The notes under the pieces are model-generated. The model did not search any database, was not told the origin of the DNA, and saw only the letters and a program-made list of their open reading frames with translations. From assembly GCA_973895155.1 (NCBI GenBank), contig OZ316895.1, positions 18,423,880 to 18,487,879 on the forward strand: DNA of 64,000 bases, given 5' to 3'. The stretch comes from Marsupella aquatica. Taxonomy: Eukaryota; Plantae; Marchantiophyta. Position 1 is the stretch's first letter. Each line of letters starts with the position of its first letter. Shown here piece after piece: positions 13,979 through 58,035 of the stretch. The position numbers were made by a program, and so were the translations under genes.

Positions 13979-16900
13979 CTAAGTGTCAGGACCGCCTCCT
14001 GGTCCTGATCCTAATTCTAAACTTGGAGATCTGAGCCCACCCTGCCCACTCACGCCTCCTCCCTCCACGTCCACCCTCCTTAAAAGGAGCGGCCCTCCAC
14101 CACCGTCATGGTAGCAGTGGCTGAACCTCAATGGACACCCCAACGCTTCTTCCACAGCCACTGCCGTAGGTCCGTCCTCTGACAGATTACCTGCCCCGGA
14201 CCGAGTCAACTCTCCATCGGCCTGACTGGGTCCACCCTCGGCTTCGGTCTCAGCATCGGCCACGGCCTCTAATACGGCTACGGCCTCCCCGACATGCTCT
14301 AGTGGAGGATCCGATACCCCATCTTCATCACTGATTGTTCCGGCCTCGGCCTTACCATCCCCGCCTTCTAGGGGTGGATATACCGTGATCCTGCCTGAGG
14401 TTGGCGCCGGTTGTACCTCCTCTATCACGACGGCTTGAGAAGCCGCATTACTCCCTGACCCAGAAGGTTTCTGCTTCTTCTTCTTCCCTGTTTTGGCAGC
14501 TGGTCCCTTCCCCTTGCCACTTATCTCCGGCAAGTGTCGCGGCTTGTCCTTCGGCCAGTACTACTCCTGGCAACTTGGTTGCCCCAATTGGACTTGATGA
14601 AGCCAAGCACTTAAATACTGCGACTTGTTTCTTTAGCCACTCCGTTTGGTTGTCGGCTCGCCGCTGTAAGTTCTCCATCTTTCTCGTGCTTTCCTCCAAC
14701 TCCTCCTGCACTTTGTCTAGGTCCTTGCGCGCCTCCTCCAGCTCCTTTTGGGCTTCCTCCAATTCCTTTTTTAAGGTAGCCCTCTCCTCCTGGGTTGCTC
14801 TTAGCTCCTTGTCGAGCTCCGCTATGACCTCAGACTCCATTTTATTCATCTTGGCATAAGATCAAGCTGGTCGTCTTTCTCACGCAGGTCGGCCTTGAAG
14901 CTGGCCGTCAGGGATGCAAGCTCCTGCTACAGCACAATAATCCCTTGATAGGATTTCCCTAACTCGGCCTCCTTCAGCTCAAGGGCTCAGCGGATATCCT
15001 CGAGTTCTCCCTTCAATGCCCTTTCCCTTCTTTGAGTCTCCGCCATGGCCCGATTGTTGGCTACTATGTGGGCCTCCTCTGCGTCCCTCAGCTCCCGCTT
15101 CCACTTCTCCCTTTCCTTGACCGCAATGGCCAACTCCCCCTGGGTCCTAGTCAGTTTATCCTTGATAATCTGATTATCAGACTGAACGGTATCCAATTGC
15201 CCCTGCATGATGTTTGGCTCATGCCGCTTAATCTGCAGCTCATCTTGGGCTTTCTTGGCCGCCTTCAGGTCTTCCACCTCGGCTTCCCTTGCCCTAAGTC
15301 GACGGATGACCTCGTCTTTCTTTCTTCTCTCCAAAGCCATCGCTTCTTCTAATCGGCGTTTTTCCAACATCTCCCTCTGGAAAAAAGGTCCCTGCTCCAA
15401 CTCCTCCCCAAAGATGATGAGCGCAAGTTCCCCACACATCTCCCCGTACTCCATGGCTCTGTCTTTAGCATAGGTGGAGTGAGTAGAAGTCATCGACATC
15501 AACCACCGTGGCCTTTGTTCCCAAGCCGCCTTGCAGATTTCTTCTATCGTGGCTAGAGGGCTGCTTTGTTTTTCTGCAAGCCGCCTGATGTCCTCTGGCC
15601 ATTCTCCCCTTGGTAAATCTTTCTCCCTAGCTAGGGCTGCCCTCTCTTCCTCCCTGAGTCGCTCCTGAAACTCTTGTGCCGTCTGTTTTATGCCGTCAAA
15701 GCTCGGGGGAGCGACATTTGGCAGGGGGACTCGGGGCTGTTCTACTGGGTGGGGTCCCCTTGAACTACTCTTGGAAGCGTGGGGATGAAATGGCCACAGG
15801 TCCTTATTCCTGGGACATGATGGTCCAACCCGTAGCCGGAGTCATCATTGCCGTAGTCCTCTACTGCCTCCTCCACTGCTTGGACTACCGGTTCCCCCGT
15901 TGCTTCCCTGGTCTTGCCGTGAACACGGCCTCCTGCGGATGATAGCTACCAGGTCCTAGTTCCTCCTCTGGCTTCCAAGCTGTCCTCTCCCTCTGTTTCC
16001 CCTGAACAGGAGCCTTAGGCTGCCTTCCCTCGGCTATAGGACTCGAGGCTCCTACATATATACAAACCCCCGGCTCGTGTTCCAGCCTCCTTCTTTCCTT
16101 GGCTCCGGTAAAGGCATTTTCCTTCATGAGTCGGCTTAGGCCGACCTCTGAAGGAGTGTCTTGTACCTGTGCCATTGCCGTTGCCATTCTCTTTTCCTTC
16201 TCCAGCAATTTCAGCAGATTCTGCATGATTGGTTGCTGCATCGGCAAGTCCTTCGTCCTTGGCCTAAACACCTGCTCCATTGTAGGACTGCCGGGCTAGT
16301 TTGGTTTCTCTGTTGTCGGCCTTTGTTTCGGAACCTCCTCTGGTGCCCTTGCTTGCAGTGGAAGTACCGGGGCAAAGATCTGACTTCGGGCATATCGGCA
16401 TAACAGCGGCATGTGATAGCTAAGCCAGGACACGCTTCCCATGCCGATTGCCTGCTGTTCCTCCTTCAAGATCTTCTTCAGTTGGGTGAGGAGGTACCCG
16501 TTGTAGTCCCAGCTTGGGTCTGGCCATTCCGCTAGGTAGACCTGTGCCTTGCCAATCTCTGGCCTCGGCAAGTTGCAGTGCATGGTTACCCACAAGAAAT
16601 CGATGATCTCTCCTATGTGCGGGTTGGTGCAGGTGTTCCGAAAGAAGCCATTCTTCGTTGATGGCCCTGGGAACAATTGGAACTCTTTGTTTGGCAAGGT
16701 CTTCCGGGTATCTACTTTGGTCTTATTGCCCATAGGCAAGCCAAACACTTCGGCAATCACACGGGGAGTGAGATAGAAATCCTTCCCATACACCCTTGTG
16801 GAATTGGTCTCAGGTTCCCATGATCCCACAAATTCTAATAAGTCTGAATCCGGCACCTCTGGCTTCATCCATGATCATTTCACGAAAGCTTCCAAGCCGG

Positions 16901-17570
16901 ATCCGGCCATGAAGCCCTAGTACTTCCGAGTCTGCATAGCCGTAAAGCATGCATCCTCTTCACGTGCAAAGTGTAATTGCACTTCCTCGGGGAGGGTCGC
17001 CGCCCAGCCTTTCCAGGTGTCATCTCTTGTCGGAACGACATTGATGGGGTCGACCTCCTCTTCTTCAGCTTTGTCCTGCCTCCTGCTCCCTTGCTCGGAT
17101 GGCTTCCTTGGTGCCGCCGACCTCATTCTCTTTGCAAGGGTGGTCACTTTGTTGGCGTTCCCTTTCCTCTTCATAGCTGCTGCCGTGGATATTTCTCCTA
17201 GCATAGTTGCCTTCGTCCACCCCTCCGTGCTACCCTTCAACTCCCAGTGTATGTCGTTGTAGCGGTTGATGGCTTCTCGGATGCCAACTATTCTGTTCTC
17301 ACAAAATAGAAGATCGTCAAGTTCGTCGCCAGTAGGTGTCCATAGGAATTCAGCCGTGATGAGTTCTCCTCCTAAGAAGGCAGACTTCTGCAGCTCCCAC
17401 AGTCGAGCGAGCTCCTGCCATTCTCGAGCGGCTCTCTCCGATTCCTTGTCCTCGTAGGTCCCAATGTACTTAGTTGCCCGTTCTAACAGGCATCCCCCAA
17501 AATGAGCAGCCTGATTGACGTTGCTCATACCCTTCCTTGAATTGATAGTCGGTATCTGCTTCCTCCCCAA
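13979..17570 (-). pseudogene. Decayed copy of the LTR-encoded ORF in solo LTR D
   Basis: Six ORF-track fragments (16917-17570, 16296-16868, 15885-16280, 14987-15502, 14448-14849, 13979-14533) are collinear with and clearly similar to the 444+651/764 aa LTR protein. Confidence 0.85.
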
Positions 17571-17699
17571 GTGCTTGCCTAAGCAGTTGGCAGTAGTTGC
17601 TTCACGTAGTCATATGCTTAGTTCGTGCTTGCAAATGAGCCACCATTTCTTGCGATCGATCCTTACCCCCCCTGCCTGGTCTTCCTTCCCGTTAGTTAC

Positions 17700-18860
17700 T
17701 GTAAACGGTAACTGAAGGGCGAACCGTCCAACTGAAGTCGGCGCGCCCCAGAAAGTAGTTAGAAACCTCAGCAAAGACGGACGCGAGGCATAGGTATTTA
17801 GAGGCTGTGGAGCGCTAGGCGCTCGGTCACTTTTTGCTAGGAGCTTGGTTGAGAGGTAGAGCCGGACTCACCTCAAGATTACCAGCGTTTTGTATTAGTG
17901 TCCCTACTCGTTTTGAGTAGTTTTTGATTATAAAGAGATGTGTATGAATGCAATAGAGTGCAGAGCAACTTTGTTACCTTGTGCTTGAGCGGTGAGTAAG
18001 AGTCCAGAGTCAACGTTGGAAGAATGTTGTGAATCAAGTCAGAAGAAGCAGTAACTTTGAAAGTCATTCGAAGAAGGAGAGGCATTCGTGATTAATACTG
18101 AGAGTCGAGGAGTGCGGTTATGGGAGTTCGCGCGAAGTACTCGTTAGGAACATGTGTTAAGTCGATTAATCGTAAATCGCTGGGATGAATGGAAATTGTC
18201 TCACTACGAGTGAGGACCTTACGGTTTAGCACGTTAAGGCAGCGATTTAACAGACAGCTCTTGGGAAGCAAGGTCTGGTTGGAGATTGTGTGTATCCAGG
18301 ACATGACCTTGGTCGTCGTACACCTTCAACATACAGGGTCAACCGTTAAACTGGGGTTCCTACTACGGATACCTCTATTTAAATTGCTTGATTTAGCCAA
18401 AGACAGATCGATTGCCAGGAAGGCCGATTGAGGGACAGCAGGACCTAACCCGGTCACTGCTACTATAACAACCATGAATGTAGACAGTAAGGCGGACAAG
18501 CCTTGCTCCTTGATTAAGTTAAGACCACTGGAATTGTGGATCTGTTCCATCGGTTCCCACCTGATTACCCGAGCGTTACGCCAGGAGAGTATTCCCATCT
18601 GTTTAATTACTTACCGCTACTGGTGTGGGTTTATCGAGATCATCTACAGGGAGGGTCTGGTGTTGACTGAAGTAGTCGTGCCCAAGAAGTGGAAGGAAGA
18701 GTTAGACATTATAGAGCACTTGGTAGGATTCACTTACGGGGACTATATAGAGGAAGAGGGGAGTACCCCGCTAGAAGGTCGGTTGATCGTTTAAGCGGGA
18801 GATACTGCAAAGAAGGCAGTTAGACGTCCAATAATCGCAAGTCAAACTGGGCGTTTAACA
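17700..18860 (+). repeat. 5' LTR of element B (1161 bp)
   Basis: TGTAAAC...GTTTAACA imperfect inverted termini, followed after 4 T by a TGG-starting PBS. Confidence 0.85.
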
Positions 18861-18882: not shown

Positions 18883-19784
18883 ACGCCTCGTTGAGGGTTC
18901 CGAGAGAGGAGCAACTGCTACGACCAGCAGTCCGAACCAGGAGAGAGAAGAGCAAATCAAGAAGGGCGAATGGGTGACATGAACTCACCGAAGGAGTTCT
19001 GGACGTTGTTCTATTTTGAGAAAGATGCCGAAGCAGCAATCATAACGACACTGAACGAGAAAGAGCACTCGATACTGGCCAATAGGAGGAGCAATGCACG
19101 AGAAGGCGATGTTATGATAATCGCTTACACCACGCCCACACACACCGAGTTGGTACTTCGAGAAGCGCATGGCGGAACCTGGAACGTGAGGAGGTGGGCG
19201 ATTCATTTGCAATCCTCTGTTTGGAGCAGTGTTTACAACAGCGACCATGCCACCAAGTGATCGGTTACCCCAAGGCTACACGCAGTACCGCCTACCCAAG
19301 AGGAAGGAGGACCTTCGAAATATCTTAGAGTGGTGTCGTTGGAATCGAAATGAGTACCCTGTTGCGATAGCATTCCAGATAGGCAGAATCGCTAGGAAAT
19401 TAAGTTCTAAACTAGAGGAAACCACAGGGGCTTGCCCAGGATGTATGATGTGGAGTCAACATGACAATTTTGAGTTTTCTATATTAAAACAGTTATTAAC
19501 AATGTGCTTTAACGAGGAACTCATGGCTCCAGAAGCCTGCACTCCTAGTTTAAGCGAATAGGAGTCATTTCGCAAAGGGCATAGCCGCAGTTAAGTAAAG
19601 GAGAGAGAGAAACTGATTAATAGAGGTCATAACATTAGTCAAGTAAAGGAGACAGTAGAAGGTCTCCATTTTTGTGAAAAGTAATGAGTAATAAGAACTT
19701 GATGCCACCTTTGTAAAGAAAAGACCTGATCATCGAGTATATTGCTTGTAGGCAGAGAGAGGGCTTTGCTACCCCAAAAGATAA

Positions 19785-24954: not shown

Positions 24955-27900
24955 TGTGGTGCGTCCCATGGCTCCCTAAACCCAAGAAACCCCCCAGCTC
25001 AAGCCGATTCCCGCAGGTTTCGTGCTTGGCGAGGCCGTTTCCGCGGCTTAGCGGCATGGGACGCTGCTAACCTTCTACTACTACTATTAACATTTTACAC
25101 ACATATACTGGACAGATCCTTCATCGGGTCATGAGATACGTAGCCGGCCTAATATAGGTCTTCCCCTGTCTTCCCCTGTCTTCCCCTCCGTCTTGTTAGG
25201 TATGTTTGGATTCCGCCGCCGGAATGATCCCCAATAGGCTTGGTTAAGCCGCTAAGACCTCTCTTAGCTCGACACATCCAACTCTCACTCCCCTGCTTAC
25301 TTTCCTTCCTTCTGTTGATGTGGGCACTCTTCACACAAGTTAATGCGACACACAAATAGCAAAATGACTCATTCTGACTGAGTCATACCATGCACTTGCC
25401 ATACAAACAGTACATCTCATACACAAGTTCTGCGAACTAAGCCGTGAGGCCAACTCTATTCAGCTCTTAGGCATGAGGAAACATGAATATACACAAGGGT
25501 CACTGTATGACTAACCGAGAGCTTCTCGTACTACTTGATCCCAGCCCGGCTGGTGCAAACTAAAAACTTGCTAAAGAAGAGGCCCTGAGCTCCCCGCTGC
25601 CCAGGTACTTATCCTGGTAGTGGATCCGCCATTCTTTGCATCGTAAGCCTAATCTACTTAACAGTAATCTACTTGCCCGAATCTACCTATGTACAGCAAG
25701 GCAGGAGCACAAGTGTTGCTCCTACCAGTGGGACCGCAATCCCACTAAGCTAAGTGTCAGGGCCGCTCCTGGTTCTAATCCTAATCCTAAACGTGGAGAT
25801 CCGCGCCCGCCCTGCCCACTCACGCCTCCTCCCTCCACGTCCGCCGTCCCTAAAAGGAACGGCGCCCTTGCACCGTCACGACACCGGTGGTGGATCCTTA
25901 ATGGACGCCCCCAACGCTTCCTCCTCAGCCACTGCCGTAGGCTCATTCCCTGACAGATTACCTGCCCTTGACTGAGTCAACTCTCCATCGGCCTGACTGG
26001 GTCCACCATCGGCGTCGGCATCGGCTCGAGAATCGGTTACGGCCTCAGCCTCGGCTACGGTCTCCCCGGCCTGCTCAAGAGGCGGATCTGGAATACTGGC
26101 CTCCTTACTGAGTAGTTCGGCTTGGGCCGCACCATCCCTACCTGTGATCATAGCGGGATCTATTGCCGTATTCATGTCGGAGGATGGTGCTGGTTCTACC
26201 TCTTTGGTCACCATGGCTTGTGGAGTCGGATACTCCTTGACCCTGAAGGTTTCCGCTTTTTCTTCTTTTCTGGTTCGGCAGCTGGTCCCTTCCCCTTCCC
26301 ACTTACCTCCGGCACTGGTGCAGTTGGCGCGGCTTTTTCTTCGGCCAGTACCACTCCTGGTAACTTGGTTGCCCCAATTGGAGTTGGGCCTGATGAAGAC
26401 AAGCACCTAAATACTGCGGCTTGTTTCTTCAGCCGCTCCGTTTGGTTGTCGGCCCGCCGCTGGAGGTTCTCCATCTTCCTCGTGATTTCCTCCAACTCCT
26501 CCTGGGTCTCATCCAGGTCCTTGCGTGCCTCCTCTAGTTCCTTCTGGGCTTCCTCCCATTCTTGTTTCAAGGTAGTCCTCTCCTCCTGGGTTGCTTTTAG
26601 CTCCTTGTCGAGCTCTGCAATGATGACAGACTCCATCTGGTTCATCTTGGCGTAAGTCTGTTCGAGCATCTCGTCCTTCTCCCTTAGGTCGGCCTTGAAG
26701 CTGGCCGTCAGGGACGCAAGCTCCTGCTGCAGCGCCATAATCCCTTGATAGGATTTCCCTAACTCGGCCTCCTTCTGCTCAAGGGCTCCGCGGATTTTCT
26801 CGAGCTCCCCTTTCAACGCCCATTCCTTTCTTTGGGTCTCCGCCATGGCCCGGCTGTTGGCTGTTATGTGGGCCTCCTCTATATTCTTCAGCTCTTGCTT
26901 CCACTTCTCCCTCTCTTTGATCGTGTCGGCCAACTCTTCCTGCGTCTGAGACAGTTTATCCTTGATATTCTGATTATCAGCCTGCGCGGTGTCCAACTGC
27001 CCCTGCATGATGTTCAGCTCATGTCGTTTAATCCGCAGTTCATCTTGGGCTTTCTTGGCCGCCCCTAGATCTTCAATCTCGGCTTCCATCCTCCTAAGCC
27101 GCCGAATGACCTCGTCCTTCTTGCTTCTCTCTAAAGCCACCGCTTCTTCTAATTGGTGCTTCTCCAACTGCTCCCTATGGAAAAAGGGTCCTACCTCCAA
27201 CTCCTCTCCAAAGATGCCGAGCGCAAGTTCCCCACACATCTCACCATACTCCATGGCTCTATTCTTAGCGTAGGTGGAGTAAGTAGAAGTGATCGGCATC
27301 GCCCATCGCGGCCTCTGCTCCCAAGCCGTCCTGCGGATCTCTTCAATCGTGGCTAGAGGTTTGCTTCCTTTTTTGGCTAGCCGCCTGATGTCCTCCGGCC
27401 AATCTCCTCCTGGTAAATCCTTTTCCTTAGCCAGGGCGGCCTCCTCCTCCTGCTTGATTCGCTCCTGAAATTCCTGCACCGTCTGTTTTATGCCGTCGAA
27501 GCTCGGGGGAGCAACATCTGGTGGGGGAGACTCAGGGCTACTCTGCTGGTTGGGGTCCCCTCGCACTACCCTTGGAAGTGTGGGGACAAACCGGCCACAG
27601 GTCCTTACTCCTGGAACGTGATGGTCCGACCCATAGCCGGAATTATCATGGCTGCAGTCCTCCACTGCCTCCTCTACCTCTTGGACGTCCGGCTTCTCCC
27701 TCTCCTCTTCGTCGGTAGGAGCTTCAGGCAATTCTACCTCAGATTCGGAGCTTGAGGTTCCCACGTACATTCGAACACCTGGCTTGGATTCCGGCCTGAT
27801 TCTCTCCTTGTCTCCAGCAAAGGGGTTTTCTCTTGTGAGCCGGTGTAGGCCTACCTCTGTAGTAGTGTCCTGCATTGTTGACGTTGCCGTTGTTGTTGCC

Positions 27901-29622
27901 GATGCCGATTTCTTTTCTTTCTCCAGTAGTTTCAGCAGACTCTGCATGCCTGGTTGCTGCATCGGCAAGTCTTCCTTCCTGGGCCTAAACACCTGCTCGA
28001 TCGTAGGACTAACAGGTGGTTGAGGCTTCTCAGCCAACGGCCTCGGCGTTGGAGCTTCCTCGGGTGCCCTTACCTGCAGGGGAAGTACCGGGGCAAAAGT
28101 CTGACCTCTGGCATACCGGCACAACAGCGGCATGTGATAGCCCAGCCGCGACACGCTCCCCATGCCGATTACCTACTGCTCCTCCTTTAAGATCTTCTTC
28201 AATTGGTTGAGGAGGTACCCGTTGTAGTCCCGGCTTGGGTCTGGCCTTTCTGCCAGATAGACCTGTGCCTTGCCGATCTCTGCCCTCGGCAAGTTACAAT
28301 GCATGGTCACCCGCAAGAAGTCGATCATCTCTCCTATGTGCGGGTTGGTGCAGGTGTTCCGGAAGAAGCCATTCTTCGTTGATGGCCCGGGGAACGACCG
28401 GAACTCCTTGTCAGGCAAGGTCTTCCTGGTATCAACTTTGGTCTTATTGCCTATCGGCAGGCCAAACACTTCGGCAATTACCTTGGGAGTAAGATAGAAA
28501 TCCTTCCCATATATCCTCGTGCAATTGGTCTCGGGTTCCCATGACCCCACGAATTCTAATAGGTCTGACTCCGGTACCTCCGGCTTCAGCCATGGTAATC
28601 TTACAAAGGCCTCCAAGCCGGATCCGGCCATGAAGCCTTGGTACTTCTTGGTCTGCATGGCCGTAAAGCATGCATCCTCCTCCCGTGCAAAATGTAGTTG
28701 CACCTCCACCGGTAGGGTTGCCGCCCAGCCCTTCCAGGTGTCATCCCTGGTTGGAATGGCCTTGATGGGATCGACCTCCTCCTCTTCGGCTTCTCCCTGC
28801 CTCCTGTTCTGCTGCTCGGCTGGCTTCTTTGGTGCCGCCGACCTCGTTCTTTTTGCCGGGGTGGCTTCATCGTTGACGGCTCCCTTCCTCTTCATCTCTG
28901 CTGCCGTGGAGGTTTCTCCTAGCACCGTTGCCTGGGTCCACCTTTCCGTGCTACCCTTTAATTCCCAGTGTATGTCGTTGCAGTTCTTGATGGCCTCTCG
29001 GATGCCGACGACGCTGTCTTTGCAAAACAGAAGATCGTCGAGTTGATTGGAAGTAGGCATCCACAGGAACTCGTCCTTGATGAGTTCGCCTCCTAAGAAA
29101 GCCGTCTTCTGCAGCTCCCACAATCGAGCGAGCTCCTGCCGTTCTCGAGCTGCCCTTTCTGATTCCTCGTCCTCGTAAGTCTTGATGTACTCAGTTGCCC
29201 GTTCGAATAGGCATCCCCAGAAATGTGCCGCTTGATTGACGTTGCTCATACCCTCCTTAGGTCGATCGTCGGTATCTACTCTCTCCCCGAGTGCTTGCCT
29301 AAGCAGCTGACAGTAGTTGGCCTCCCGTAGTCGTCTGCCTAGTTCGTGCTCGCAAATGAGCCACCATCTCCTGCAAGCGCTCCTTACCCCTCTCCTCTGC
29401 CGGTCCTTCTTCCCGTTGATCCTTCCTAGCCGCCGACGCTTAACGCGCCCTAACCCTAATCGGGTTTTCACCCTCAGCCTTACCTCCGGCCTCGGCCCGG
29501 GTTCCATGGTTGCCCCTAATTGTTTATATTTTCCTTGTTTTGTCCCTATACTAAGGTGTTCCTAGGGTGCCTTCCTGCTTTACCCACTTAACCGGCCGAG
29601 TGATTCCTGTCTAGGCATCACA
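24955..29622 (-). repeat. Family-A LTR, 4668 bp (3' LTR)
   Basis: Minus strand TGTGATGCC...GCACCACA; preceded by a purine tract; the same boundaries are defined by the TSD of solo LTR D. Confidence 0.9.
25876..29249 (-). pseudogene. LTR-encoded accessory protein (about 1120 aa reconstructed; PMD/Athila-ORF1-like domain plus long coiled coil), one stop and one frameshift
   Basis: ORFs 28173-29507, 26208-28163 and 25876-26406 join into one protein when compared with the copy at 61691-64000, where KEEQ*VIG reads KEEQQVIG. Start at MSNVNQ (29249) or at 29507. Confidence 0.8.
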
Positions 29623-32600
29623 TAGCTCCCCACTTAATTGTGAAGCGTCCTCGCGAACAACTTCATCTTCGTCCATATAGTATTTCTTGAGGCGGTCATA
29701 ATGGATGCGAACTGGATATACCTCTCCCGTAATGTTGGCCAATTGTACGGAGCCATTGGGGAACATCATGGTTACTCTAAAGGGTCCTAACCAGCGAGTG
29801 TAAAGCTTTCCTGGAAACCTACTATACCTACTGTCATAAAGTAGCACAAGATCACCGGTATGAATACTAACTACTTTTAACCTTTTATCATACTGCTGCT
29901 TCATGATATTCTGTCTATATTCTACTCTCTCGGCTGAAATCATTCTCGCTTCCTCTAAAGCTTCTAACCTATATTCTCGCTCCTTTAGGCTCTCCTCCGC
30001 TGAGGCTCTTTCCTCAATTGTAACTTGAAATGTCGGTATCTCAAGTTGCATGGGTACCAGGGCTTCTTGTCCAAAGGTTAAGAAGAAGGGTGTATGACCG
30101 GTAGTGGATTTATAGGCAAGATTGTAAGCAAAAACAGCAGCAAACAATTTATCATCCCAATCGAGTTTGTTCTGAGCTACTGTCTTGTTCAATATCTTTC
30201 CTATAATTCCGTTTGCTCGTTCTGTCAACCCGTTTGCCTTTGGATGGTAGGGAGTAGTAGGCCTATGTTTAACTAAATACTGCTCATTTAAACGACTAAT
30301 TATATCATTCAAAAAATGGGTTCCTCTATCACTAACTAATTCTAGGGGTGCTCCATACCTGGTGAAGATCTGCTCATACATGAATCTAGCCGTAGTAATT
30401 GCATCATCCTTCGTTGTTGGTCTGGCCTCTACCCATTTAGTTGCATAATCCGTAGCCAGGATTATGTACTTGTTCCGTCGAGGGTGGGTCAGTGGTTTCA
30501 GAGGTCCAATGTAATCAATACCCCACTTCTCGAATGGTGCCAGAGGTAGAATAGGGTGTAGTGGATGCCTGGTGGACGCCCTTGGTCCTCCCGCTCGTTG
30601 ACAAGGATCGCATTGTTTGATAAACTGATAGACATCTTTGTGCAAGGTGGGCCACCAGTAACCGGCATTTAATATCTTTTTAGACGTGGTTACTGGGGCA
30701 AAATGTCCTCCGGCCTCCTCTCCATGCATGGCCCGTAGGACTCGTTTTACCTCTCTCTTTTCCAAACATCTTTGAATCGTGCCGTTGATTCCATGCTTGT
30801 GCAGTATGCCTTTAATGCACTGATACTGTCTGACCTTCCGCACAAAGACTGCGGCTTGCTCTCGGCTTAATCCTGGCTGTAATCTGGAAGTGCTGAGAAA
30901 TTGTAAAATCTCAGGGTACCATGTACCAGCTATTTCCACAACGAATAGCTCCTCGTCGGGGAATCGATCATCGATGCAATCCGTGGCAAGTTTACCTGTG
31001 ATCCTTGAAAAGAAGTCGGCATTGGCATGTAACTTTCCCGGCTTGATCCTCAGCTCATAGTCAAACTCCTGTAATAGCAAAATCCATCTTGCTACTCTGC
31101 CTGTAAGGTCCGGCTTATTAACTAGGTACTTCAAACTTTCGTGATCAGTATGAAAGATTACCTTGTACCCTAGTAAATAATGCCTAAACTTTTTACAAGA
31201 ATAAATGACTCCTAATGCTTCTCTTTCCGTGGTAGAGTAGTTCCGTTCGGCATCGGCAAGCTGACGGCTTGCGAAGTATATGGGATGGTCCCTTCCTTTC
31301 TCATCCAACTGACTTAGTACTGAGCCAATACAGAAGCCCGAGACATCTACAAAAACATGAAAATCTTTGTTCCAGTCCGGTGCTATCATGACTGGGGCCT
31401 CTACTAACATCTGCTTCAATTCTACCACCGCTGTGACTCGTTCGGGTGTGGGTTCGAAGTCTGCTCCTGCCTTGAGCATATTGGTTAATGGTAAAGCTAG
31501 CTTGGCAAAATCCTTGATGAACCGGCGATAGTAACCAATGCATCCCAAGAAGGATCTTACATCCTTTATGTTCTTAGGTTGCATGATATCTAGCCATACT
31601 GCTAGCTTACCTTTGTCAATCTCAATGCCCTTCCTTGATACCTTGTGACCTAGTAGCACCCCCTCGGTTACTGCAAAAAAACATTTATCTGGGTGTAACT
31701 TGAGACCCACCTCTCTACATCTCATGAAGGTTTTCCTGAGGTATTTAGCATGTTTCGATGCCTTCCCGAATACTGCAAAGTCATCAATGAAGATTTCCAT
31801 GAACTTTCTCAAGTAATCATGAAAAATGTTCACCATTAATCGTTGGAACATAGCTGGTGCGTTGCAGAGTCCAAACGGCATACGATTGAAGACATAGATC
31901 CCCCATTCCGTGATGAAGGCCGTCTTGATTTGGTCTTCCTGCCGAATCCTGATTTGGTTATAACTAGAGTATCCATCCATGAATGAATATAGTTCATGAC
32001 TGGCTACCATGTCTAGTACCATATCAGTAAACGGTAAAGGAAAATGGTCTTTTAATGTTGCTTCATTCAGCTTCCTGTAATCCTGACAAACCCGGATCTT
32101 GGGTTTACCATCGGGTCCAGCTTTCTTGGGAACTATCACAATTGGAGACACCCAGTCTGAATGCAGGATTGGAGTGATGAATCCAGCTTCCACTAGTTTG
32201 TCGATTTCTGTTTTGACCAGCAGGGAATACTTCGGGTTCATCCTTCGAATTGGTTGTCGAAATGATTTGGCTCCTAACATGAGATCAATTCGATGTTCCC
32301 CTAGTGTTGGATCTACTCCCTTTAGATCTTGGTGACTCCATGCAAACACATCCTGAAATTCAATCAATAAGTCACTGATCTCTTTCTCGAGCTCAGGTGC
32401 TAGGTTTCTCCCTAAGTTCAGTTCTCTTCCCTCTCCTAAGTCGAGCTTCCGATATTGCCGTGCTTGGATCATATTAATCTGCTTCTTCAAATTCGGGTCC
32501 AGTTCGGCTTCCAGTCTCTCTAATCTCATACCTCCATAAACTGGGATCTCGGCTGGACTAGCCGAGTCGGTCCCTTCCTTGGTGTCCATAGATTGTCCCC

Positions 32601-32877
32601 TTACCGGTCTATTCGGTTTTGAATTAGTGGTCGGCTCCCCTTCCTGCCTTGGCTCTGGATCGTGTCTGTCCATCTCATCCACCTCTTGCTCCTGAGAGTT
32701 AGGCCGCTGTGCTCTCTCGGCTTCTAATAGGGCCTCAATTTGTTCTGCCCTCGTAATCGGCTTGTATGCCGATCCCTTGGTATTTAATTCCTTGCCGATG
32801 ATCGATGGCGTTGTGGACCCCGTCGGCTCTGCCACAACGCCTGCAGAAAATCCACTGTCCCTGCTACTGCTCCCCAC
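29611..32877 (-). CDS. pol: Family-A pol (RT, RNase H, integrase), open 1088-codon frame
   Basis: WVSPIVIVPKK, RVCQDYRKLN, MPFGLCNAP, FIDDF; RNase H FHVFVDVS..ERNYSTTEREAL; integrase H-H-C-C, KWGIDYIGP, VSDRG, NGLTE, WLGPF. Confidence 0.93.
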   Translation of the reverse strand: MGSSSRDSGFSAGVVAEPTGSTTPSIIGKELNTKGSAYKPITRAEQIEALLEAERAQRPNSQEQEVDEMDRHDPEPRQEGEPTTNSKPNRPVRGQSMDTKEGTDSASPAEIPVYGGMRLERLEAELDPNLKKQINMIQARQYRKLDLGEGRELNLGRNLAPELEKEISDLLIEFQDVFAWSHQDLKGVDPTLGEHRIDLMLGAKSFRQPIRRMNPKYSLLVKTEIDKLVEAGFITPILHSDWVSPIVIVPKKAGPDGKPKIRVCQDYRKLNEATLKDHFPLPFTDMVLDMVASHELYSFMDGYSSYNQIRIRQEDQIKTAFITEWGIYVFNRMPFGLCNAPAMFQRLMVNIFHDYLRKFMEIFIDDFAVFGKASKHAKYLRKTFMRCREVGLKLHPDKCFFAVTEGVLLGHKVSRKGIEIDKGKLAVWLDIMQPKNIKDVRSFLGCIGYYRRFIKDFAKLALPLTNMLKAGADFEPTPERVTAVVELKQMLVEAPVMIAPDWNKDFHVFVDVSGFCIGSVLSQLDEKGRDHPIYFASRQLADAERNYSTTEREALGVIYSCKKFRHYLLGYKVIFHTDHESLKYLVNKPDLTGRVARWILLLQEFDYELRIKPGKLHANADFFSRITGKLATDCIDDRFPDEELFVVEIAGTWYPEILQFLSTSRLQPGLSREQAAVFVRKVRQYQCIKGILHKHGINGTIQRCLEKREVKRVLRAMHGEEAGGHFAPVTTSKKILNAGYWWPTLHKDVYQFIKQCDPCQRAGGPRASTRHPLHPILPLAPFEKWGIDYIGPLKPLTHPRRNKYIILATDYATKWVEARPTTKDDAITTARFMYEQIFTRYGAPLELVSDRGTHFLNDIISRLNEQYLVKHRPTTPYHPKANGLTERANGIIGKILNKTVAQNKLDWDDKLFAAVFAYNLAYKSTTGHTPFFLTFGQEALVPMQLEIPTFQVTIEERASAEESLKEREYRLEALEEARMISAERVEYRQNIMKQQYDKRLKVVSIHTGDLVLLYDSRYSRFPGKLYTRWLGPFRVTMMFPNGSVQLANITGEVYPVRIHYDRLKKYYMDEDEVVREDASQLSGELCDA
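29623..29637 (-). promoter_or_regulatory. Polypurine-tract-like sequence of family A, inside the pol coding sequence
   Basis: TTAAGTGGGGAGCTA directly precedes the LTR start TGTGATG on the minus strand; same at 40506-40520. Confidence 0.65.
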
Positions 32878-34256
32878 TTAGCCGTTTCATCCAATTGGTC
32901 TACATCCTTTACTTCCTCCGGAATTGCAGCTAAAAAGGTGGATTCTATTGTAAAGCAGTCCTCGACCTCTTCGTCTTCTTCTTCCAAGTCACCTTCCATT
33001 GGTTCTTGCCATAATCCGCTGGGGGCTACCTCTGGTCCAAAGACTCCTTCTTCGGTTAGGTTAGTGAGGCATTCTAACCAACGTACTTCATCGGCTGACT
33101 CCAGTCCACTGTCGTACCCATCTACTTCCCTTATGCTTTTCCTACGGTCATCCTTAGTGTCCCAGGATACCGTGATAGAGGGGGTCCCGAAAGTGAACTG
33201 CTTTTTACCCCAATCTTCTATTACCTCGGCTAGGTACAGCCATGGCCTACCAATCAATAGCCGGAATGACGTAGGATTTACCGGCTTCATTACTACATAG
33301 TTAATGCTAAAGAAGATACCTCCTATCTCTGTCTTGATGCCGGTTAACACTCCCGTAGGAATGACCTGATATCCATTGGCCATGTTCAACACTCTTCCAG
33401 TCATCTCCGGTGTTAGACCCCACCCTTTTGCTGTTGAATCAATCATAATACATACCCCTGATCCTCCATCGATGGTTACCCGTAGTAATAATTCTCCTTG
33501 AATCATTAATGGTAATGCTGGGGCTCCTTGATCTTCTTCTATCATTAGTACGTCGGATCTGGTTGCTACCTTGGGTAATCTCGGCTTGCCGAGAATAGCC
33601 TTCCTTAATTGCTTCCGGAAATACGGGCTATTTTTCAATAGTTGACCTACTGTTGCCGAGACTCTAGATTCTAGTACATCTTTAGCCAGGTCATAGGGAA
33701 CAATCGGCTTCTCTTCTGGTGGTGTTTCCGTCTTGGATTCGGCCAGTTTTGCCACGCTAGTCTCCACAACTGTTGGGTCTTCCGAAGCAAACAATGCTTT
33801 TGCTCGTTTTACATCCTTGGCAATGGCTTCGGTATTCTCCAGGGTTTCTAATTCTCTTAGTTGTTCCTTAACACTAGCCGTAACAGAGGGGTAGAACAAC
33901 TTAGGATGATCTCGATTGAAGTCGCTATCTTGTGAAGGATTGGTTTCACTGGTGGGCTCATGGCTTACCTGTATTGCCGGAGCCCTCCCTTCTCCTTCTG
34001 TTGATGTTGACGAAGAGTCGATCCTTTCCTCCGTAACCTTCCCTTTATTTTTGGCCAGCCCATCCCACCTTTCCTTCCTTCTGGTAGATCGAGTAGAGAC
34101 CCGGTAGCAATCATGATCTAAATCCTCCTCTGAGAAGGTTGATAGGGCTTTGGCCTCATCAGCAGATGGTACAAACTCTGCCTCGGCATCCTCTTGCCAT
34201 CCTAGTTCGATGTGGTTGATTTGAACTCCTCCGGGGGTAGTACCTGGCGGTAAGAT
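32784..34256 (-). CDS. Family-A gag-linker plus aspartic protease
   Basis: In frame with gag after a single TAG; open from 34256; motifs VTIDGGSGVCIM and LLIGRPWL. Confidence 0.85.
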   Translation of the reverse strand: MLPPGTTPGGVQINHIELGWQEDAEAEFVPSADEAKALSTFSEEDLDHDCYRVSTRSTRRKERWDGLAKNKGKVTEERIDSSSTSTEGEGRAPAIQVSHEPTSETNPSQDSDFNRDHPKLFYPSVTASVKEQLRELETLENTEAIAKDVKRAKALFASEDPTVVETSVAKLAESKTETPPEEKPIVPYDLAKDVLESRVSATVGQLLKNSPYFRKQLRKAILGKPRLPKVATRSDVLMIEEDQGAPALPLMIQGELLLRVTIDGGSGVCIMIDSTAKGWGLTPEMTGRVLNMANGYQVIPTGVLTGIKTEIGGIFFSINYVVMKPVNPTSFRLLIGRPWLYLAEVIEDWGKKQFTFGTPSITVSWDTKDDRRKSIREVDGYDSGLESADEVRWLECLTNLTEEGVFGPEVAPSGLWQEPMEGDLEEEDEEVEDCFTIESTFLAAIPEEVKDVDQLDETAKWGAVAGTVDFLQALWQSRRGPQRHRSSARN

Positions 34257-35777
34257 CTAAATCGGCAAAAGCTTATGATTTGCGGCCAGGCCTGCCAACC
34301 AAGTAGGACATTGCCCTAGCATATGACCTTCCTGTCGGCATCCCATACATAGTTGAGCTGGTTGTCCATCACCCTGTTTGCGTGCATTCGGGCATTCTCT
34401 AGCAAAATGGCCAGGTTGACCACAATTATAGCACGCCGCAAATCTTTGCACATTCGGCCTAGGAGGTACTGACGGGTTCTGAATAATCCGAGGATACATC
34501 TCTCCTGGATTGTTCCTTAACCCTGACCACAGAGATGCAGGTCTGTTGGATAGGTCTCGTGCTCCAGTCTCACTGATGCCGAAAACACTATCAGCGGCAT
34601 CTCCTAAAAAGTACTCTACTTCTCCCTGACATGGTTTGATCTCGGCCACATGCCGAACATGATTAGTATTAAGCTTAGGACACGCATCTTTATGGTGTCC
34701 GGTTTTATAACATAAGGCACACCATACAGAGCTATCCTCCTGTACTACCTTCTTCTTTGGTTTTACCTCTGCAATGATAGCCTTAAGTTGCTCGGTAAGG
34801 GCTACGATGTTATCTGGTGGCTTAGCCTCCATCTTGACTTTCGTCTTCCCTCTCCTTCTGCCCTTCCTTTTCCTAGTTTTTTCTTCTTCAGAACTAGAAG
34901 ATGACTCACTCTTGCTACTCCCACTATCCGAGCTTGACTTATCACTTCTAGACTTCTTGGGATGTTTCTTCTTCTTATCTTTTCTCTTATGGGGTGATCC
35001 CTCCTCTGATGAGGAACTCTCAGACTTAAGCTGTTTCTTCCGGCTTGTGATATCTGCATTAATGTATAATTGAATATCCTTAATTGCTTCGGCTAAAGTC
35101 TCCGGGTTCTCCTTCCTAATTGCAAAACTCATCTTCTGTGGCAAAGCATTCACCAACCATTGAAGTTGCATACCTTCAGATGCATTGGTCTTTGTACGTC
35201 TTACCAGTTTCTGAAAGCGTTGCAAGAACTTCCTGAAGGATTTGTTCTCCTTGAACCGAAGTTGTCCCAACTTCAGCACTGCTAGTTCTGAAGTTCCAAT
35301 GGGTCGAAACTCCTTAACAAAGAGTGTTTTGAAGATATCCCAGATGGCTTGATCTTCCACATCTAATGCTCTGTACCAAGGCCTAGCCTCACCCTTGAAC
35401 AGGCCGGGAAGAATCTGCATCTTGATGGCCGATTCTCCATTTGCTGCAGCGGTTCCCTCGAAATCATCCAACCATTCGTCCGGATCCTCATCTCCTCTCC
35501 CATGAAATGCCTTGTAATGTATGCGTGACCGCTGGCTCAATCTGGTCCCTGGCCTCTCGTCTGGCCGTGCCTCTGGTTCCCCCATGTCAGTTGGAGACTC
35601 ACTTCTCCTTACCGACTCTTCTTCTGGTATGTCTTCTTCGACGCCACTTCCAGTTTCGGAGCTACCAGCTCTTTCTGCCCCTCTCAGTCGCTGTGTATCA
35701 TGCCACCCGGCGAGCTGCTGCAGTCGAGCTCTCTCCCGTTGAATCACTCTTTCTTCCCTCGGCGTAAAGTCAGTCAT
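34257..35777 (-). CDS. gag: Family-A gag with CCHC zinc knuckles
   Basis: FHGRGDEDPDEWLDDF capsid-like start; knuckles CALCYKTGHHKDAC, CYNCGQPGHFAREC, CMGCRQEGHMLGQC. Confidence 0.9.
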   Translation of the reverse strand: MTDFTPREERVIQRERARLQQLAGWHDTQRLRGAERAGSSETGSGVEEDIPEEESVRRSESPTDMGEPEARPDERPGTRLSQRSRIHYKAFHGRGDEDPDEWLDDFEGTAAANGESAIKMQILPGLFKGEARPWYRALDVEDQAIWDIFKTLFVKEFRPIGTSELAVLKLGQLRFKENKSFRKFLQRFQKLVRRTKTNASEGMQLQWLVNALPQKMSFAIRKENPETLAEAIKDIQLYINADITSRKKQLKSESSSSEEGSPHKRKDKKKKHPKKSRSDKSSSDSGSSKSESSSSSEEEKTRKRKGRRRGKTKVKMEAKPPDNIVALTEQLKAIIAEVKPKKKVVQEDSSVWCALCYKTGHHKDACPKLNTNHVRHVAEIKPCQGEVEYFLGDAADSVFGISETGARDLSNRPASLWSGLRNNPGEMYPRIIQNPSVPPRPNVQRFAACYNCGQPGHFARECPNARKQGDGQPAQLCMGCRQEGHMLGQCPTWLAGLAANHKLLPI

Positions 35778-35821
35778 TACCTACGCTTCCGTTCTAACTT
35801 CATATCTCACGGCTTAAGAAA

Positions 35822-35842
35822 TGCCCCCTCCATCTAGCGCCA
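35822..35842 (-). promoter_or_regulatory. Primer-binding site of family A
   Basis: TGGCGCTAGATGGAGGGGGCA 4 nt after the LTR end CCACA; identical to the element C PBS. Confidence 0.8.
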
Positions 35843-35846
35843 AAAA

Positions 35847-38800
35847 TGTGGTGCGTCCCATGGCTCCCTAAACCCAAGAAACCCCCCAGCTCAAGCCGAT
35901 TCCCGCAGGTTTCGTGCTTGGCGAGGCCGTTTCCGCGGCTTAGCGGCATGGGACGCTGCTAACCTTCTACTACTACTATTAACATTTTACACACATATAC
36001 TGGACAGATCCTTCATCGGGTCATGAGATACGTAGCCGGCCTAATATAGGCCTTCCCCTGTCTTCCCCTCCGTCTTGTTAGGTATGTTTGGATTCCGCCG
36101 CCGGAATGATCCCCAATAGGCTTGGTTAAGCCGCTAAGACCTCTCTCAGCTCGACACATCCAACTCTCACTCCCCTGCTTACTTTCCTTCCTTCTGTTGA
36201 TGTGGGCACTCTTCACACAAGTTAATGCGACACACAAATAGCAAAATGACTCATTCTGACTGAGTCATACCATGCACTTGCCATACAAACAGTACATCTC
36301 ATACACAAGTTCTGCGAACTAAGCCGTGAGGCCAACTCTATTCAGCTCTTAGGCATGAGGAAACATGAATATACACAAGGGTCACTGTATGACTAACCGA
36401 GAGCTTCTCGTACTACTTGATCCCAGCCCGGCTGGTGCAAACTAAAAACTTGCTAAAGAAGAGGCCCTGAGCTCCCCGCTGCCCAGGTACTTATCCTGGT
36501 AGTGGATCCGCCATTCTTTGCATCGTAAGCCTAATCTACTTAACAGTAATCTACTTGCCCGAATCTACCTATGTACAGCAAGGCAGGAGCACAAGTGTTG
36601 CTCCTACCAGTGGGACCGCAATCCCACTAAGCTAAGTGTCAGGGCCGCTCCTGGTTCTAATCCTAATCCTAAACGTGGAGATCCGCGCCCGCCCTGCCCA
36701 CTCACGCCTCCTCCCTCCACGTCCGCCGTCCCTAAAAGGAACGGCGCCCTTGCACCGTCACGACACCGGTGGTGGATCCTTAATGGACGCCCCCAACGCT
36801 TCCTCCTCAGCCACTGCCGTAGGCTCATTCCCTGACAGATTACCTGCCCTTGACTGAGTCAACTCTCCATCGGCCTGACTGGGTCCACCATCGGCGTCGG
36901 CATCGGCTCGAGAATCGGTTACGGCCTCAGCCTCGGCTACGGTCTCCCCGGCCTGCTCAAGAGGCGGATCTGGAATACTGGCCTCCTTACTGAGTAGTTC
37001 GGCTTGGGCCGCACCATCCCTACCTGTGATCATAGCGGGATCTATTGCCGTATTCATGTCGGAGGATGGTGCTGGTTCTACCTCTTTGGTCACCACGGCT
37101 TGTGGAGTCGGATTACTCCTTGACCCTTAAGGTTTCCGCTTTTTCTTCTTTTCTGGTTCGGCAGCTGGTCCCTTCCCCTTCCCACTTACCTCCGGCACTG
37201 GTGCAGTTGGCGCGGCTTTTTCTTCGGCCAGTACCACTCCTGGTAACTTGGTTGCCCCAATTGGAGTTGGGCCTGATGAAGACAAGCACCTAAATACTGC
37301 GGCTTGTTTCTTCAGCCGCTCCGTTTGGTTGTCGGCCCGCCGTTGGAGGTTCTCCATCTTCCTCGTGATTTCCTCCAACTCCTCCTGGGTCTCATCCAGG
37401 TCCTTGCGTGCCTCCTCTAGTTCCTTCTGGGCTTCCTCCCGTTCTTGTTTCAAGGTAGTCCTCTCCTCCTGGGTTGCTTTTAGCTCCTTGTCGAGCTCTG
37501 CAATGATGACAGACTCCATCTGGTTCATCTTGGCGTAAGTCTGTTCGAGCATCTCGTCCTTCTCCCTTAGGTCGGCCTTGAAGCTGGCCGTCAGGGACGC
37601 AAGCTCCTGCTGCAGCGCCATAATCCCTTGATAGGATTTCCCTAACTCGGCCTCCTTCTGCTCAAGGGCTCCGCGGATTTTCTCGAGCTCCCCTTTCAAC
37701 GCCCATTCCTTTCTTTGGGTCTCCGCCATGGCCCGGCTGTTGGCTGTTATGTGGGCCTCCTCTATATTCTTCAGCTCTTGCTTCCACTTCTCCCTCTCTT
37801 TGATCGTGTCGGCCAACTCTTCCTGCGTCTGAGTCAGTTTATCCTTGATATTCTGATTATCAGCCTGCGCGGTGTCCAACTGCCCCTGCATGATGTTCAG
37901 CTCATGTCGTTTAATCCGCAGTTCATCTTGGGCTTTCTTGGCCGCCCCTAGATCTTCAATCTCGGCTTCCATCCTCCTAAGCCGCCGAATGACCTCGTCC
38001 TTCTTGCTTCTCTCTAAAGCCACCGCTTCTTCTAATTGGTGCTTCTCCAACTGCTCCCTATGGAAAAAGGGTCCTACCTCCAACTCCTCTCCAAAGATGC
38101 CGAGCGCAAGTTCCCCACACATCTCACCATACTCCATGGCTCTATTCTTAGCGTAGGTGGAGTAAGTAGAAGTGATCGGCATCGCCCATCGCGGCCTCTG
38201 CTCCCAAGCCGTCCTGCGGATCTCTTCAATCGTGGCTAGAGGTTTGCTTCCTTTTTTGGCTAGCCGCCTGATGTCCTCCGGCCAATCTCCTCCTGGTAAA
38301 TCCTTTTCCTTAGCCAGGGCGGCCTCCTCCTCCTGCTTGATTCGCTCCTGAAATTCCTGCACCGTCTGTTTTATGCCGTCGAAGCTCGGGGGAGCAACAT
38401 CTGGTGGGGGAGACTCAGGGCTACTCTGCTGGTTGGGGTCCCCTCGCACTACCCTTGGAAGTGTGGGGACAAACCGGCCACAGGTCCTTACTCCTGGAAC
38501 GTGATGGTCCGACCCATAGCCGGAATTATCATGGCTGCAGTCCTCCACTGCCTCCTCTACCTCTTGGACGTCCGGCTTCTCCCTCTCCTCTTCGTCGGTA
38601 GGAGCTTCAGGCAATTCTGCCTCAGATTCGGAGCTTGAGGTTCCCACGTACATTCGAACACCTGGCTTGGATTCCGGCCTGATTCTCTCCTTGTCTCCAG
38701 CAAAGGGGTTTTCTCTTGTGAGCCGGTGTAGGCCTACCTCTGTAGTAGTGTCCTGCATTGTTGCCGTTGCCGTTGTTGTTGCCGATGCCAATTTCTTTTC

Positions 38801-40505
38801 TTTCTCCAGTAGTTTCAGCAGACTCTGCATGCCTGGTTGCTGCATCGGCAAGTCTTCCTTCCTGGGCCTAAACACCTGCTCGATCGTAGGACTAACAGGT
38901 GGTTGAGGCTTCTCAGCCAACGGCCTCGGCGTTGGAGCTTCCTCGGGTGCCCTTACCTGTAGGGGAAGTACCGGGGCAAAAGTCTGACCTCTGGCATACC
39001 GGCACAACAGCGGCATGTGATAGCCCAGCCGCGACACGCTCCCCATGCCGATTACCTACTGCTCCTCCTTTAAGATCTTCTTCAATTGGTTGAGGAGGTA
39101 CCCGTTGTAGTCCCGGCTTGGGTCTGGCCTTTCTGCCAGATAGACCTGTGCCTTGCCGATCTCTGCCCTCGGCAAGTTACAATGCATGGTCACCCGCAAG
39201 AAGTCGATCATCTCTCCTATGTGCGGGTTGGTGCAGGTGTTCCGGAAGAAGCCATTCTTCGTTGATGGCCCGGGGAACGACCGGAACTCCTTGTCAGGCA
39301 AGGTCTTCCTGGTATCAACTTTGGTCTTATTGCCTATCGGCAGGCCAAACACTTCGGCAATTACCTTGGGAGTAAGATAGAAATCCTTCCCATATATCCT
39401 CGTGCAATTGGTCTCGGGTTCCCATGACCCCACGAATTCTAATAGGTCTGACTCCGGTACCTCCGGCTTCAGCCATGGTAATCTTACAAAGGCCTCCAAG
39501 CCGGATCCGGCCATGAAGCCTTGGTACTTCTTGGTCTGCATGGCCGTAAAGCATGCATCCTCCTCCCGTGCAAAATGTAGTTGCACCTCCACCGGTAGGG
39601 TTGCCGCCCAGCCCTTCCAGGTGTCATCCCTGGTTGGAATGGCCTTGATGGGATCGACCTCCTCCTCTTCGGCTTCTCCCTGCCTCCTGTTCTGCTGCTC
39701 GGCTGGCTTCTTTGGTGCCGCCGACCTCGTTCTTTTTGCCGGGGTGGCTTCATCGTTGACGGCTCCCTTCCTCTTCATCTCTGCTGCCGTGGAGGTTTCT
39801 CCTAGCACCGTTGCCTGGGTCCACCTTTCCGTGCTACCCTTTAATTCCCAGTGTATGTCGTTGCAGTTCTTGATGGCCTCTCGGATGCCGACGACGCTGT
39901 CTTTGCAAAACAGAAGATCGTCGAGTTGATTGGAAGTAGGCATCCACAGGAACTCGTCCTTGATGAGTTCGCCTCCTAAGAAAGCCGTCTTCTGCAGCTC
40001 CCACAATCGAGCGAGCTCCTGCCGTTCTCGAGCTGCCCTTTCTGATTCCTCATCCTCGTAAGTCTTGATGTACTCAGTTGCCCGTTCGAACAGGCATCCC
40101 CAGAAATGTGCCGCTTGATTGACGTTGCTCATACCCTCCTTAGGTCGATCGTCGGTATCTACTCTCTCCCCGAGTGCTTGCCTAAGCAGCTGACAGTAGT
40201 TGGCCTCCCGTAGTCGTCTGCCTAGTTCGTGCTCGCAAATGAGCCACCATCTCCTGCAAGCGCTCCTTACCCCTCTCCTCTGCCGGTCCTTCTTCCCGTT
40301 GATCCTTCCTAGCCGCCGACGCTTAACGCGCCCTAACCCTAATCGGGTTTTCACCCTCAGCCTTACCTCCGGCCTCGGCCCGGGTTCCATGGTTGCCCCT
40401 AATTGTTTATATTTTCCTTGTTTTGTCCCTATACTAAGGTGTTCCTAGGGTGCCTTCCTGCTTTACCCACTTAACCGGCCGAGTGATTCCTGTCTAGGCA
40501 TCACA
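35847..40505 (-). repeat. Family-A LTR, 4659 bp (shared central LTR)
   Basis: Near-identical to 24955-29622; has a PBS on one side and a PPT/pol end on the other. Confidence 0.92.
36758..40132 (-). pseudogene. LTR-encoded accessory protein, second copy, two in-frame stops
   Basis: ORFs 39056-40390, 37127-39046 and 36758-37096 lie in one frame; stops at 39056 (shared with the other LTR) and 37127 (private). Confidence 0.8.
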
Positions 40506-54907: not shown

Positions 54908-54928
54908 TGGCGCTAGATGGAGGGGGCA
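54908..54928 (+). promoter_or_regulatory. Primer-binding site of element C
   Basis: TGGCGCTAGATGGAGGGGGCA, 21/21 identical to the family-A PBS. Confidence 0.8.
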
Positions 54929-58000: not shown

Positions 58001-58035
58001 ATGGGATCCATCCATTCCGCAATTGGAGGAAGTAA
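55019..58035 (+). pseudogene. gag-protease of element C
   Basis: MPVTRSQ start, HYRPFKGRHGDDPDEWLDEF, three CCHC knuckles, VLVDGGAGVNIM, ILLGRPWL; in-frame stops and one early frameshift. Confidence 0.85.

Follow-up and report, generated by a model that had tools for sequence, protein, structure and literature searches.

A liverwort Ty3/gypsy retrotransposon family whose long terminal repeats enclose a sense gene under purifying selection

INTRODUCTION

In mouse mammary tumor virus (MMTV), the sag gene lies wholly inside the U3 part of the long terminal repeat (LTR), which also holds additional promoters, while HIV-1 nef lies there in part (PMC12789967). The extra open reading frames (ORFs) of plant elements are placed in the internal region (PMC7264820, PMC11963269), and their described domains include Athila ORF-1 (PF03078), Transposase_32 (PF20167), PMD (PF10536) and Transposase_28 with Smc-like coils (PMC6317226, PMC11728184, PMC11963269, PMC7264820). 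A sense additional ORF of Athila combines Transposase_32 with a predicted nuclear localization signal (NLS) (PMC11728184), and a counter-silencing role has been proposed for PMD proteins borne by transposable elements (PMC8616336). Here we describe family Y, a group of LTR retrotransposons in a 64,000-nucleotide stretch of the liverwort Marsupella aquatica (assembly GCA_973895155.1, contig OZ316895.1, positions 18,423,880 to 18,487,879; hereafter the window), in which a gene of 1,124 codons is wholly enclosed by the LTR.

In the reference survey of plant Ty3/gypsy elements, the LTRs of nonchromoviruses reach about 5 kb. Its classification knows extra ORFs solely as 5' or 3' of the polyprotein, which could conceal LTR-borne cases in the element-level table; neither "Marchantia" nor "liverwort" occurs in its main text (PMC6317226). 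No plant or retrotransposon ORF inside an LTR was described in the literature searched, a scope outside which most subscription papers fell. To judge from that literature, a sag-like location in the LTR would be new for what looks like an extra ORF of the plant type.

RESULTS

LTR limits and anatomy of family Y

Positions 24955 to 29622 form LTR A (4,668 bp), the downstream LTR of a young family Y element of 15,551 bp; this and all other family Y features described here lie on the minus strand. The upstream LTR of the same element, LTR B, occupies 35847 to 40505 (4,659 bp) and differs from LTR A by 13 substitutions, one 10-bp indel and one 1-bp indel. Self-comparison of the window revealed four further copies of the LTR A unit, one of them an older fragment. 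Besides B, these are LTR C (60770 to 64000, cut by the window end and mosaic relative to A), solo LTR D and fragment F (11164 to 12340), which comprises the tail and the last part of the ORF. Solo LTR D is split by a nested element, E (17700 to 44708, target site duplication [TSD] GTTAC), into a main part with a decayed ORF (13210 to 17699) and its first 204 bp with the TATA box (44714 to 44917), which together measure 4,694 bp.

The limits of the LTR, as given by an earlier reading of the sequence alone (the sequence-only reading), were borne out. The ends are TG..CA, with a terminal inverted repeat matching at 7 of 8 positions; a polypurine tract adjoins the LTR starts at 29622 (tract at 29623 to 29639) and 40505; and a primer-binding site (PBS) at 35822 to 35842 lies 4 nt past the LTR B end at 35847, its 21 nt being identical to the PBS of a second family, G. 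The 5-bp TSD CCTCC is present at both outer ends of solo LTR D (44918 to 44922 and 13205 to 13209). The young element was inserted into element E at 24955 and lost its right flank by deletion, so its own TSD is unreadable. Contigs from other runs respect the same boundaries: in runs X1 and X2, summed contig depth rises about 500-fold at 24955, four X3 and two X6 contigs terminate there, and the flanks of 15 X1 contigs with loose ends at 35847 differ (agreement 0.41).

The internal region (29623 to 35846; 6.2 kb) consists almost entirely of gag, protease, reverse transcriptase (RT), RNase H and integrase and holds no extra ORF. Pol runs through the polypurine tract to a stop at 29611 to 29613, 12 nt into the LTR. 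Beyond LTR B lies another internal region, this one truncated (40506 to 44695; 6 differences in 4,190 bp), and the locus is thus a tandem LTR-internal-LTR-internal array with 99.66% identity. A full element carries two copies of the gene, one each in LTRs A and B, as the sequence-only reading had proposed.

The LTR-borne ORF is under purifying selection

The sense-strand ORF spans 1,124 codons (25876 to 29249, counted on LTR B from the conserved Met to the stop), fills 72% of the LTR and is present in four LTR copies (A to D). The Met codon at 29249 is the likely start, judging from its alignment with the first Met of homologues P0005, P0019, P0023 and P0027 in a shared M..xx(F/L)W motif. The first ATG (29507) was rejected as the start because it lies 16 nt from the TATA box, in a region without constraint.

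The LTR ORF is a genuine gene under purifying selection. The ratio of nonsynonymous to synonymous substitution rates (dN/dS; Nei-Gojobori method with codon bootstrap) between LTRs B and D was 0.25 (confidence interval [CI], 0.21 to 0.31) over 1,095 codons, a value that, like the others involving D, is inflated by the decay of D after its insertion. Within this comparison the ratio fell to 0.11 in the conserved core and 0.18 in the N-terminal domain, compared with 1.11 and 1.37 in the shifted frames and 0.73 to 1.17 in pseudo-frames of the tail. Between B and C it was 0.38 (CI, 0.28 to 0.52), and all three indels in the ORF were in frame. The A-B comparison, with just 10 differences, gave a CI of 0.10 to 2.07. 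A dN/dS near 1, which the sequence-only reading had named as a sign against itself, is contradicted by the B-D value.

The frame of about 1,120 amino acids seen in the sequence-only reading is real in its extent and in its four copies, but LTR A is not open: an in-frame stop at 28173 to 28175 lies within the conserved core, and 1 nt is deleted near 26230. LTR B shares the stop and has a second one at 37127 to 37129, and the ORF of D carries six stops and seven frameshifting indels, with the nested element sitting between its TATA box and start codon. LTR C is open across all of its 769 visible codons (61691 to 64000), as had been noted, whereas the longest open frame in 1,000 first-order Markov resamplings was 345 codons. 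At the 28173 stop, 97 to 100% of the contig depth in all four runs has another letter, and the base deleted near 26230 is present in nearly all depth in three of the four runs and in 31% in X2. An intact full-length ORF is not visible in the window, but across the runs both breaks in A are minority states. We also considered read-through of the 28173 stop and rejected it, since C and D lack this stop and few contigs of the four runs show it.

LTR C differs from A at 0 to 2% of positions over most of the LTR and at 8 to 34% in a 700-bp patch of the ORF tail (26000 to 26620). This variable C terminus suggests recombination between subfamilies.

A second family shares the layout

The 5' LTR of family G (51544 to 54895, plus strand; 3,352 bp) has a terminal inverted repeat matching at 11 of 14 positions, a TATA box at 51903 and a PBS at 54908, 12 nt downstream. 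It contains a homologous, broken ORF of about 660 codons (52011 to 54002, plus strand) that comprises the core and coiled coil and is followed by an 895-bp tail. The two ORF products share 27.5% identity (tblastn, E = 1.8e-13), and the G core matches a profile built without window sequences at E = 7.8e-48. The families are divergent, with 65% identity in pol and 38% in gag, and their LTR DNAs do not align (best match, 29 nt; E = 0.004). They nevertheless have the same order of TATA box, ORF, tail of about 0.9 kb (921 bp in Y, 895 bp in G) and PBS; in both, TAGGATTAGG lies shortly 3' of the ORF stop and UGU peaks in midtail. A layout common to two such families is likely to be ancestral within a lineage. 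Just before the G LTR, an ORF without a Pfam match (50929 to 51543, plus strand) is interrupted by it at 51544.

The encoded protein

The predicted protein begins with a helical domain (amino acids 1 to 110; 28920 to 29249), whose M..xxFW start is common to the homologues, followed by the conserved core domain (about amino acids 166 to 385; 28095 to 28754), where constraint is strongest. A long predicted coiled coil of about 280 residues (26400 to 27200), rich in E, K and Q and free of proline, precedes an NLS-like KKKKRK motif and an acidic tail of variable sequence. In all, the protein has two NLS-like motifs. Some homologues (P0026) have the same plan of domain, linker, domain and coil. No transmembrane helix was found (highest 19-residue hydropathy, 0.9), and the protein is therefore not Env-like. 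The protein is likely a nuclear accessory helper of the element.

A phmmer search with the N-terminal 444 amino acids returned 19 proteins at E ≤ 0.001, 18 of which look like pieces of the family; the remaining one, P0012, has 2,214 amino acids in repeats and bacterial Ig domains and was discarded as a spurious match. Two of the 10 phmmer matches that were looked up are named proteins of the liverwort Calypogeia fissa, and a third came from a core profile search; the assignment of the lineage to liverworts draws on these. Word-index protein searches gave no match with the 1,099-amino-acid query and none among targets of 1,379 to 3,935 amino acids; with the core profile they gave two. Pfam gave weak coiled-coil matches alone. 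Motifs of the W.PET and LT...I..FGLP type may resemble those of PMD.

Two AlphaFold models were of low confidence (predicted local distance difference test scores of 44 and 53), and Foldseek PDB, BFVD and VIA-align searches with them gave no clear match, the best (Z = 5.8) being a generic helical hairpin. Sequence searches of PDB gave nothing below E = 0.03. A scan for related loci yielded none among 12 viral candidates, and the 7 of 64 metagenome candidates that passed it were rejected, as the core profile scored in none of the 7. The 5' ORF of element E, which has an M..EFW start, was likewise rejected as an internal homologue for want of a profile match.

Noncoding parts of the LTR

The TATA-like box AATATAAA at 29523 to 29530, about 95 bp into the LTR, is kept in D, as the sequence-only reading had noted, and is the sole TATAWA in LTR A. 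The probable 5' leader (29250 to 29522) is open in A, has a dN/dS of 0.59 (CI, 0.32 to 1.21) and four frameshifting indels relative to D, and holds a telo-box-like GATTAGGGTTAGGG that is kept in D. At the other end, the 921-bp noncoding tail (24955 to 25875) is about 12% diverged from D, compared with a synonymous rate of 0.51 in the ORF. It includes a UGU-rich block (25223 to 25422), a candidate 3'-end signal, and a hairpin in its last 110 nt (near 24958 to 25064; z scores of -5.3 in A, -2.2 in D and -2.6 in F) that was not seen in the G tail (z = -0.6). The conservation of the tail and the hairpin suggest that it likely holds the classical LTR signals. An Rfam scan gave no match.

DISCUSSION

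Relationship to described lineages

The TG..CA LTRs, PBS, polypurine tract and TSD, together with Pfam matches to gag, zf-CCHC, RVT_1, RT_RNaseH, Integrase_H2C2 and rve in the order GAG-PROT-RT-RH-INT, place family Y in Ty3/gypsy; a protease-like DGGSG motif is present in Y and a Pfam protease match in G. The complete 1,088-amino-acid pol lacks a Pfam chromodomain and thus does not belong to a chromovirus. The aRH of Tat elements (TatI to TatIII, Ogre, Retand) was not found, there being one RNase H region, 102 amino acids before the integrase zinc finger. Family Y shares the lack of aRH and the 5-bp TSD with Athila, but an Athila-type internal extra ORF 3' of pol is absent: pol runs into the LTR and leaves no internal 3' region. 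Like Phygy of mosses and Selgy of Selaginella, also from seed-free plants, family Y has an interior that is mostly polyprotein and lacks both aRH and chromodomain; unlike them (4-bp TSDs, 4.4 to 10 kb, no extra ORF listed), it has a 5-bp TSD, a length of 15.6 kb and an LTR gene (PMC6317226).

In both families, RT overlaps the protease region and begins in its -1 frame (32784 to 32877 and 57933 to 58035). No canonical slippery heptamer was found at this frame change in either family; PROT and RT would be linked by a frameshift or splice that both have conserved. A stop after gag in the young element (34257 to 34259) is a minority state in all four runs, which marks this element as defective in gag-prot as well.

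The extra gene itself resembles those of Athila, Ogre and Retand in its nonchromovirus-type host element and in its globular domain, coiled coil and NLS-like motifs; a weak feature likeness to PF20167, PF03078 and PF09331 is a lead only. Extra ORFs of those elements are described as internal, single and often antisense, whereas the gene in family Y is sense, lies between polypurine tract and PBS, is retained when a solo LTR forms and has no Pfam match. Retrosat2 and RIRE3 combine LTRs of more than 3 kb with a sense extra ORF, but this ORF0 is described as upstream of gag-pol and not as part of the LTR (PMC3485330). In position, the closest likeness is to MMTV sag, since the whole ORF is a complete sense gene within the LTR and is present twice per element. 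Here, however, the host is a plant retrotransposon without env, the gene has 1,124 codons, its U3 position is our proposal, and the product lacks the transmembrane helix of Sag.

A model for the LTR-borne gene

What is observed is that the LTR encloses the gene, that the gene is under selection and that two divergent families share the layout. We consider it probable that they reflect a Ty3/gypsy lineage, likely of liverworts, in which an LTR wholly enclosing a selected sense gene serves as a self-contained transcription unit for a trans-acting nuclear protein. In this model, transcription driven by the TATA box near the LTR start would end in the UGU-rich midtail and yield an mRNA of about 4.2 kb (3 kb in G). 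The gene itself looks like a relocated product of a plant extra ORF rather than an unrelated novelty, a resemblance we treat as a lead only. It may once have been an Athila-ORF1- or Transposase_32-like ORF between pol and an LTR of 0.9 kb and would have become part of U3 through a shift of plus-strand priming up to the integrase end; pol ending inside the LTR means that the ORF occupies the place of 3' extra ORFs. The least certain step is the last, in which the protein might bind chromatin or host silencing factors and so aid transcription or integration of the family.

We lean toward a position of the ORF in U3, with a promoter of its own; a position in R or U5 is a serious contender that we hold to be less probable, and any other position is improbable. 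A more specific version remains tentative and, to us, possible rather than probable: an unclassified liverwort Ty3/gypsy clade would have moved a trans-acting, Athila-ORF1-like chromatin or antisilencing gene into its LTR, young solo LTRs would keep expressing it, and this would be the sag-like layout with the longest ORF outside retroviruses.

Several observations weigh against the model. Each of the five window copies is either broken (A, B, D and G) or cut off (C). Both young LTRs carry a stop that cuts the core, so the gene may not be needed in cis, but a stop common to A and B could also stem from duplication or conversion. The tail of LTR A has no TATAWA, and a U3 position needs one or must do without. 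The limits of G are less secure than those of Y, because its 3' LTR lies outside the window, and they stand without that LTR or a TSD; "lineage-wide" here means two families in one window. As to descent, Pfam families of the Athila-ORF1 and PMD type matched none of 21 aligned members at E ≤ 10. In favor of such a descent, as a lead only, an Atlas search with a homologue's core pointed to Transposase_32, ATHILA ORF-1 and DUF1985 clusters at scores of 0.80 to 0.81, 8 of the 10 best named matches falling in one family or clan; against it, shuffled proteins reach scores below 0.9 about one-third of the time. The N-terminal domain gave unnamed Atlas clusters alone, below 0.8.

How the gene is transcribed could also be read differently. 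If the TATA box at +95 started the genomic RNA, the ORF would lie in R or U5, downstream of the only promoter, as the first cistron, and gag-pol would need splicing, re-initiation or read-through of the poly(A) site in the 5' LTR. The sole TATAWA does precede the ORF in both LTR A (+95) and LTR G (+360), donor motifs of the AG/GTAAG type in the leader are kept in the alignment of A and D, and Ogre and Tekay provide examples of 5' extra ORFs (PMC6317226). We nonetheless judge this organization unlikely: the minus-strand strong-stop DNA would have to be 4.5 kb long, and 1,124 upstream codons would have to be bypassed; in G, the stretch from TATA box to ORF has no such donor motif; and conservation in the tail is fourfold that of synonymous sites, as would be expected of a tail that holds promoter, R and U5. 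Somewhat less likely still is that the protein serves in structure or transport (as a coiled-coil scaffold for particles, or in nuclear import or cell-to-cell movement) and is not a chromatin or antisilencing protein. Such a function would suit the roughly 280 coiled-coil residues and the nuclear import of preintegration complexes proposed for plant additional ORFs (PMC7264820), but without a transmembrane helix the protein is not Env-like, and constraint peaks in the globular core and not in the coil (0.11 versus 0.24).

That the ORF is a decaying passenger, a formerly internal gene trapped by a recent boundary shift and showing leftover selection, would account for every complete window copy being broken and for an A-B interval that includes 1. 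It is very improbable, as selection holds between copies sharing both LTR ends (B and D) or the visible end (B and C), the breaks in A are minority states in the runs, and the layout is common to a family with 27% ORF identity. The tandem array could in turn reflect an assembly artifact, or the 4.67-kb unit could be a short true LTR plus a duplicated internal part. These possibilities are largely refuted and keep hardly any weight: the TSD encloses the whole 4.69-kb solo LTR D, PBS and polypurine tract lie at the outer ends, and no shorter direct repeat exists within the unit. Moreover, the median depth of the ORF part is about that of the noncoding tail and 3.7 and 3.4 times that of the internal region in X1 and X2 (likeness, 85 and 88; X3, X5 and X6 left out), a rough measure in that depth is not copy number. 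This LTR-level depth, together with the differing flanks that other runs show at the boundary, makes it unlikely that most copies have short LTRs and carry the ORF internally, contrary to the outcome that the sequence-only reading had named as fatal to its proposal.

A selected gene of 1,124 codons in two distant families offers one concrete reason for giant LTRs. Formation of a solo LTR need not delete an accessory gene that sits in the LTR, and, if the tentative version above were true, the host's main route of retrotransposon deletion would leave behind a gene that helps the family. The sequence-only reading held that every solo LTR keeps the function, but the single solo LTR in the window is decayed. 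The compact LTR cassette also makes the function of a plant extra-ORF protein testable. Annotation pipelines take LTRs as noncoding, and some "unnamed proteins" of liverworts may be LTR products.

Other features of the window

The 5' LTR of the more distant element E (17700 to 18860; 1.16 kb) contains a 120-codon open frame (18432 to 18794, plus strand) with another 80 codons in frame before it, possibly another LTR-borne gene; a profile search found no homology to the family Y ORF. Between the PBS and gag of E, two overlapping frames of about 120 codons (18895 to 19561, plus strand) are likely a broken 5' extra ORF. D, E and Y are nested three deep. For the young insertions at 24955 and 60770, the target was in both cases the integrase end of a Ty3/gypsy element on the opposite strand; a preference for inserting into retrotransposon DNA is possible on these two cases.

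A broken Mutator-like element (MULE)-like transposase (46081 to 49972, minus strand) shows a SWIM-type C..CED..C.H motif by eye and no Pfam match; AGCGCC(T/A)GGCGCTA repeats flank it at 45850 to 45980 and 50150 to 50530. An intronless ORF at 7330 to 8097 (minus strand) encodes an SdpI/YfhL domain (PF13630, E = 7.7e-12), a family known mostly from bacteria, and horizontal transfer is possible. The nearest host gene is represented by a mitochondrial carrier exon at 1173 to 1919 (plus strand; PF00153, E = 1.5e-49).

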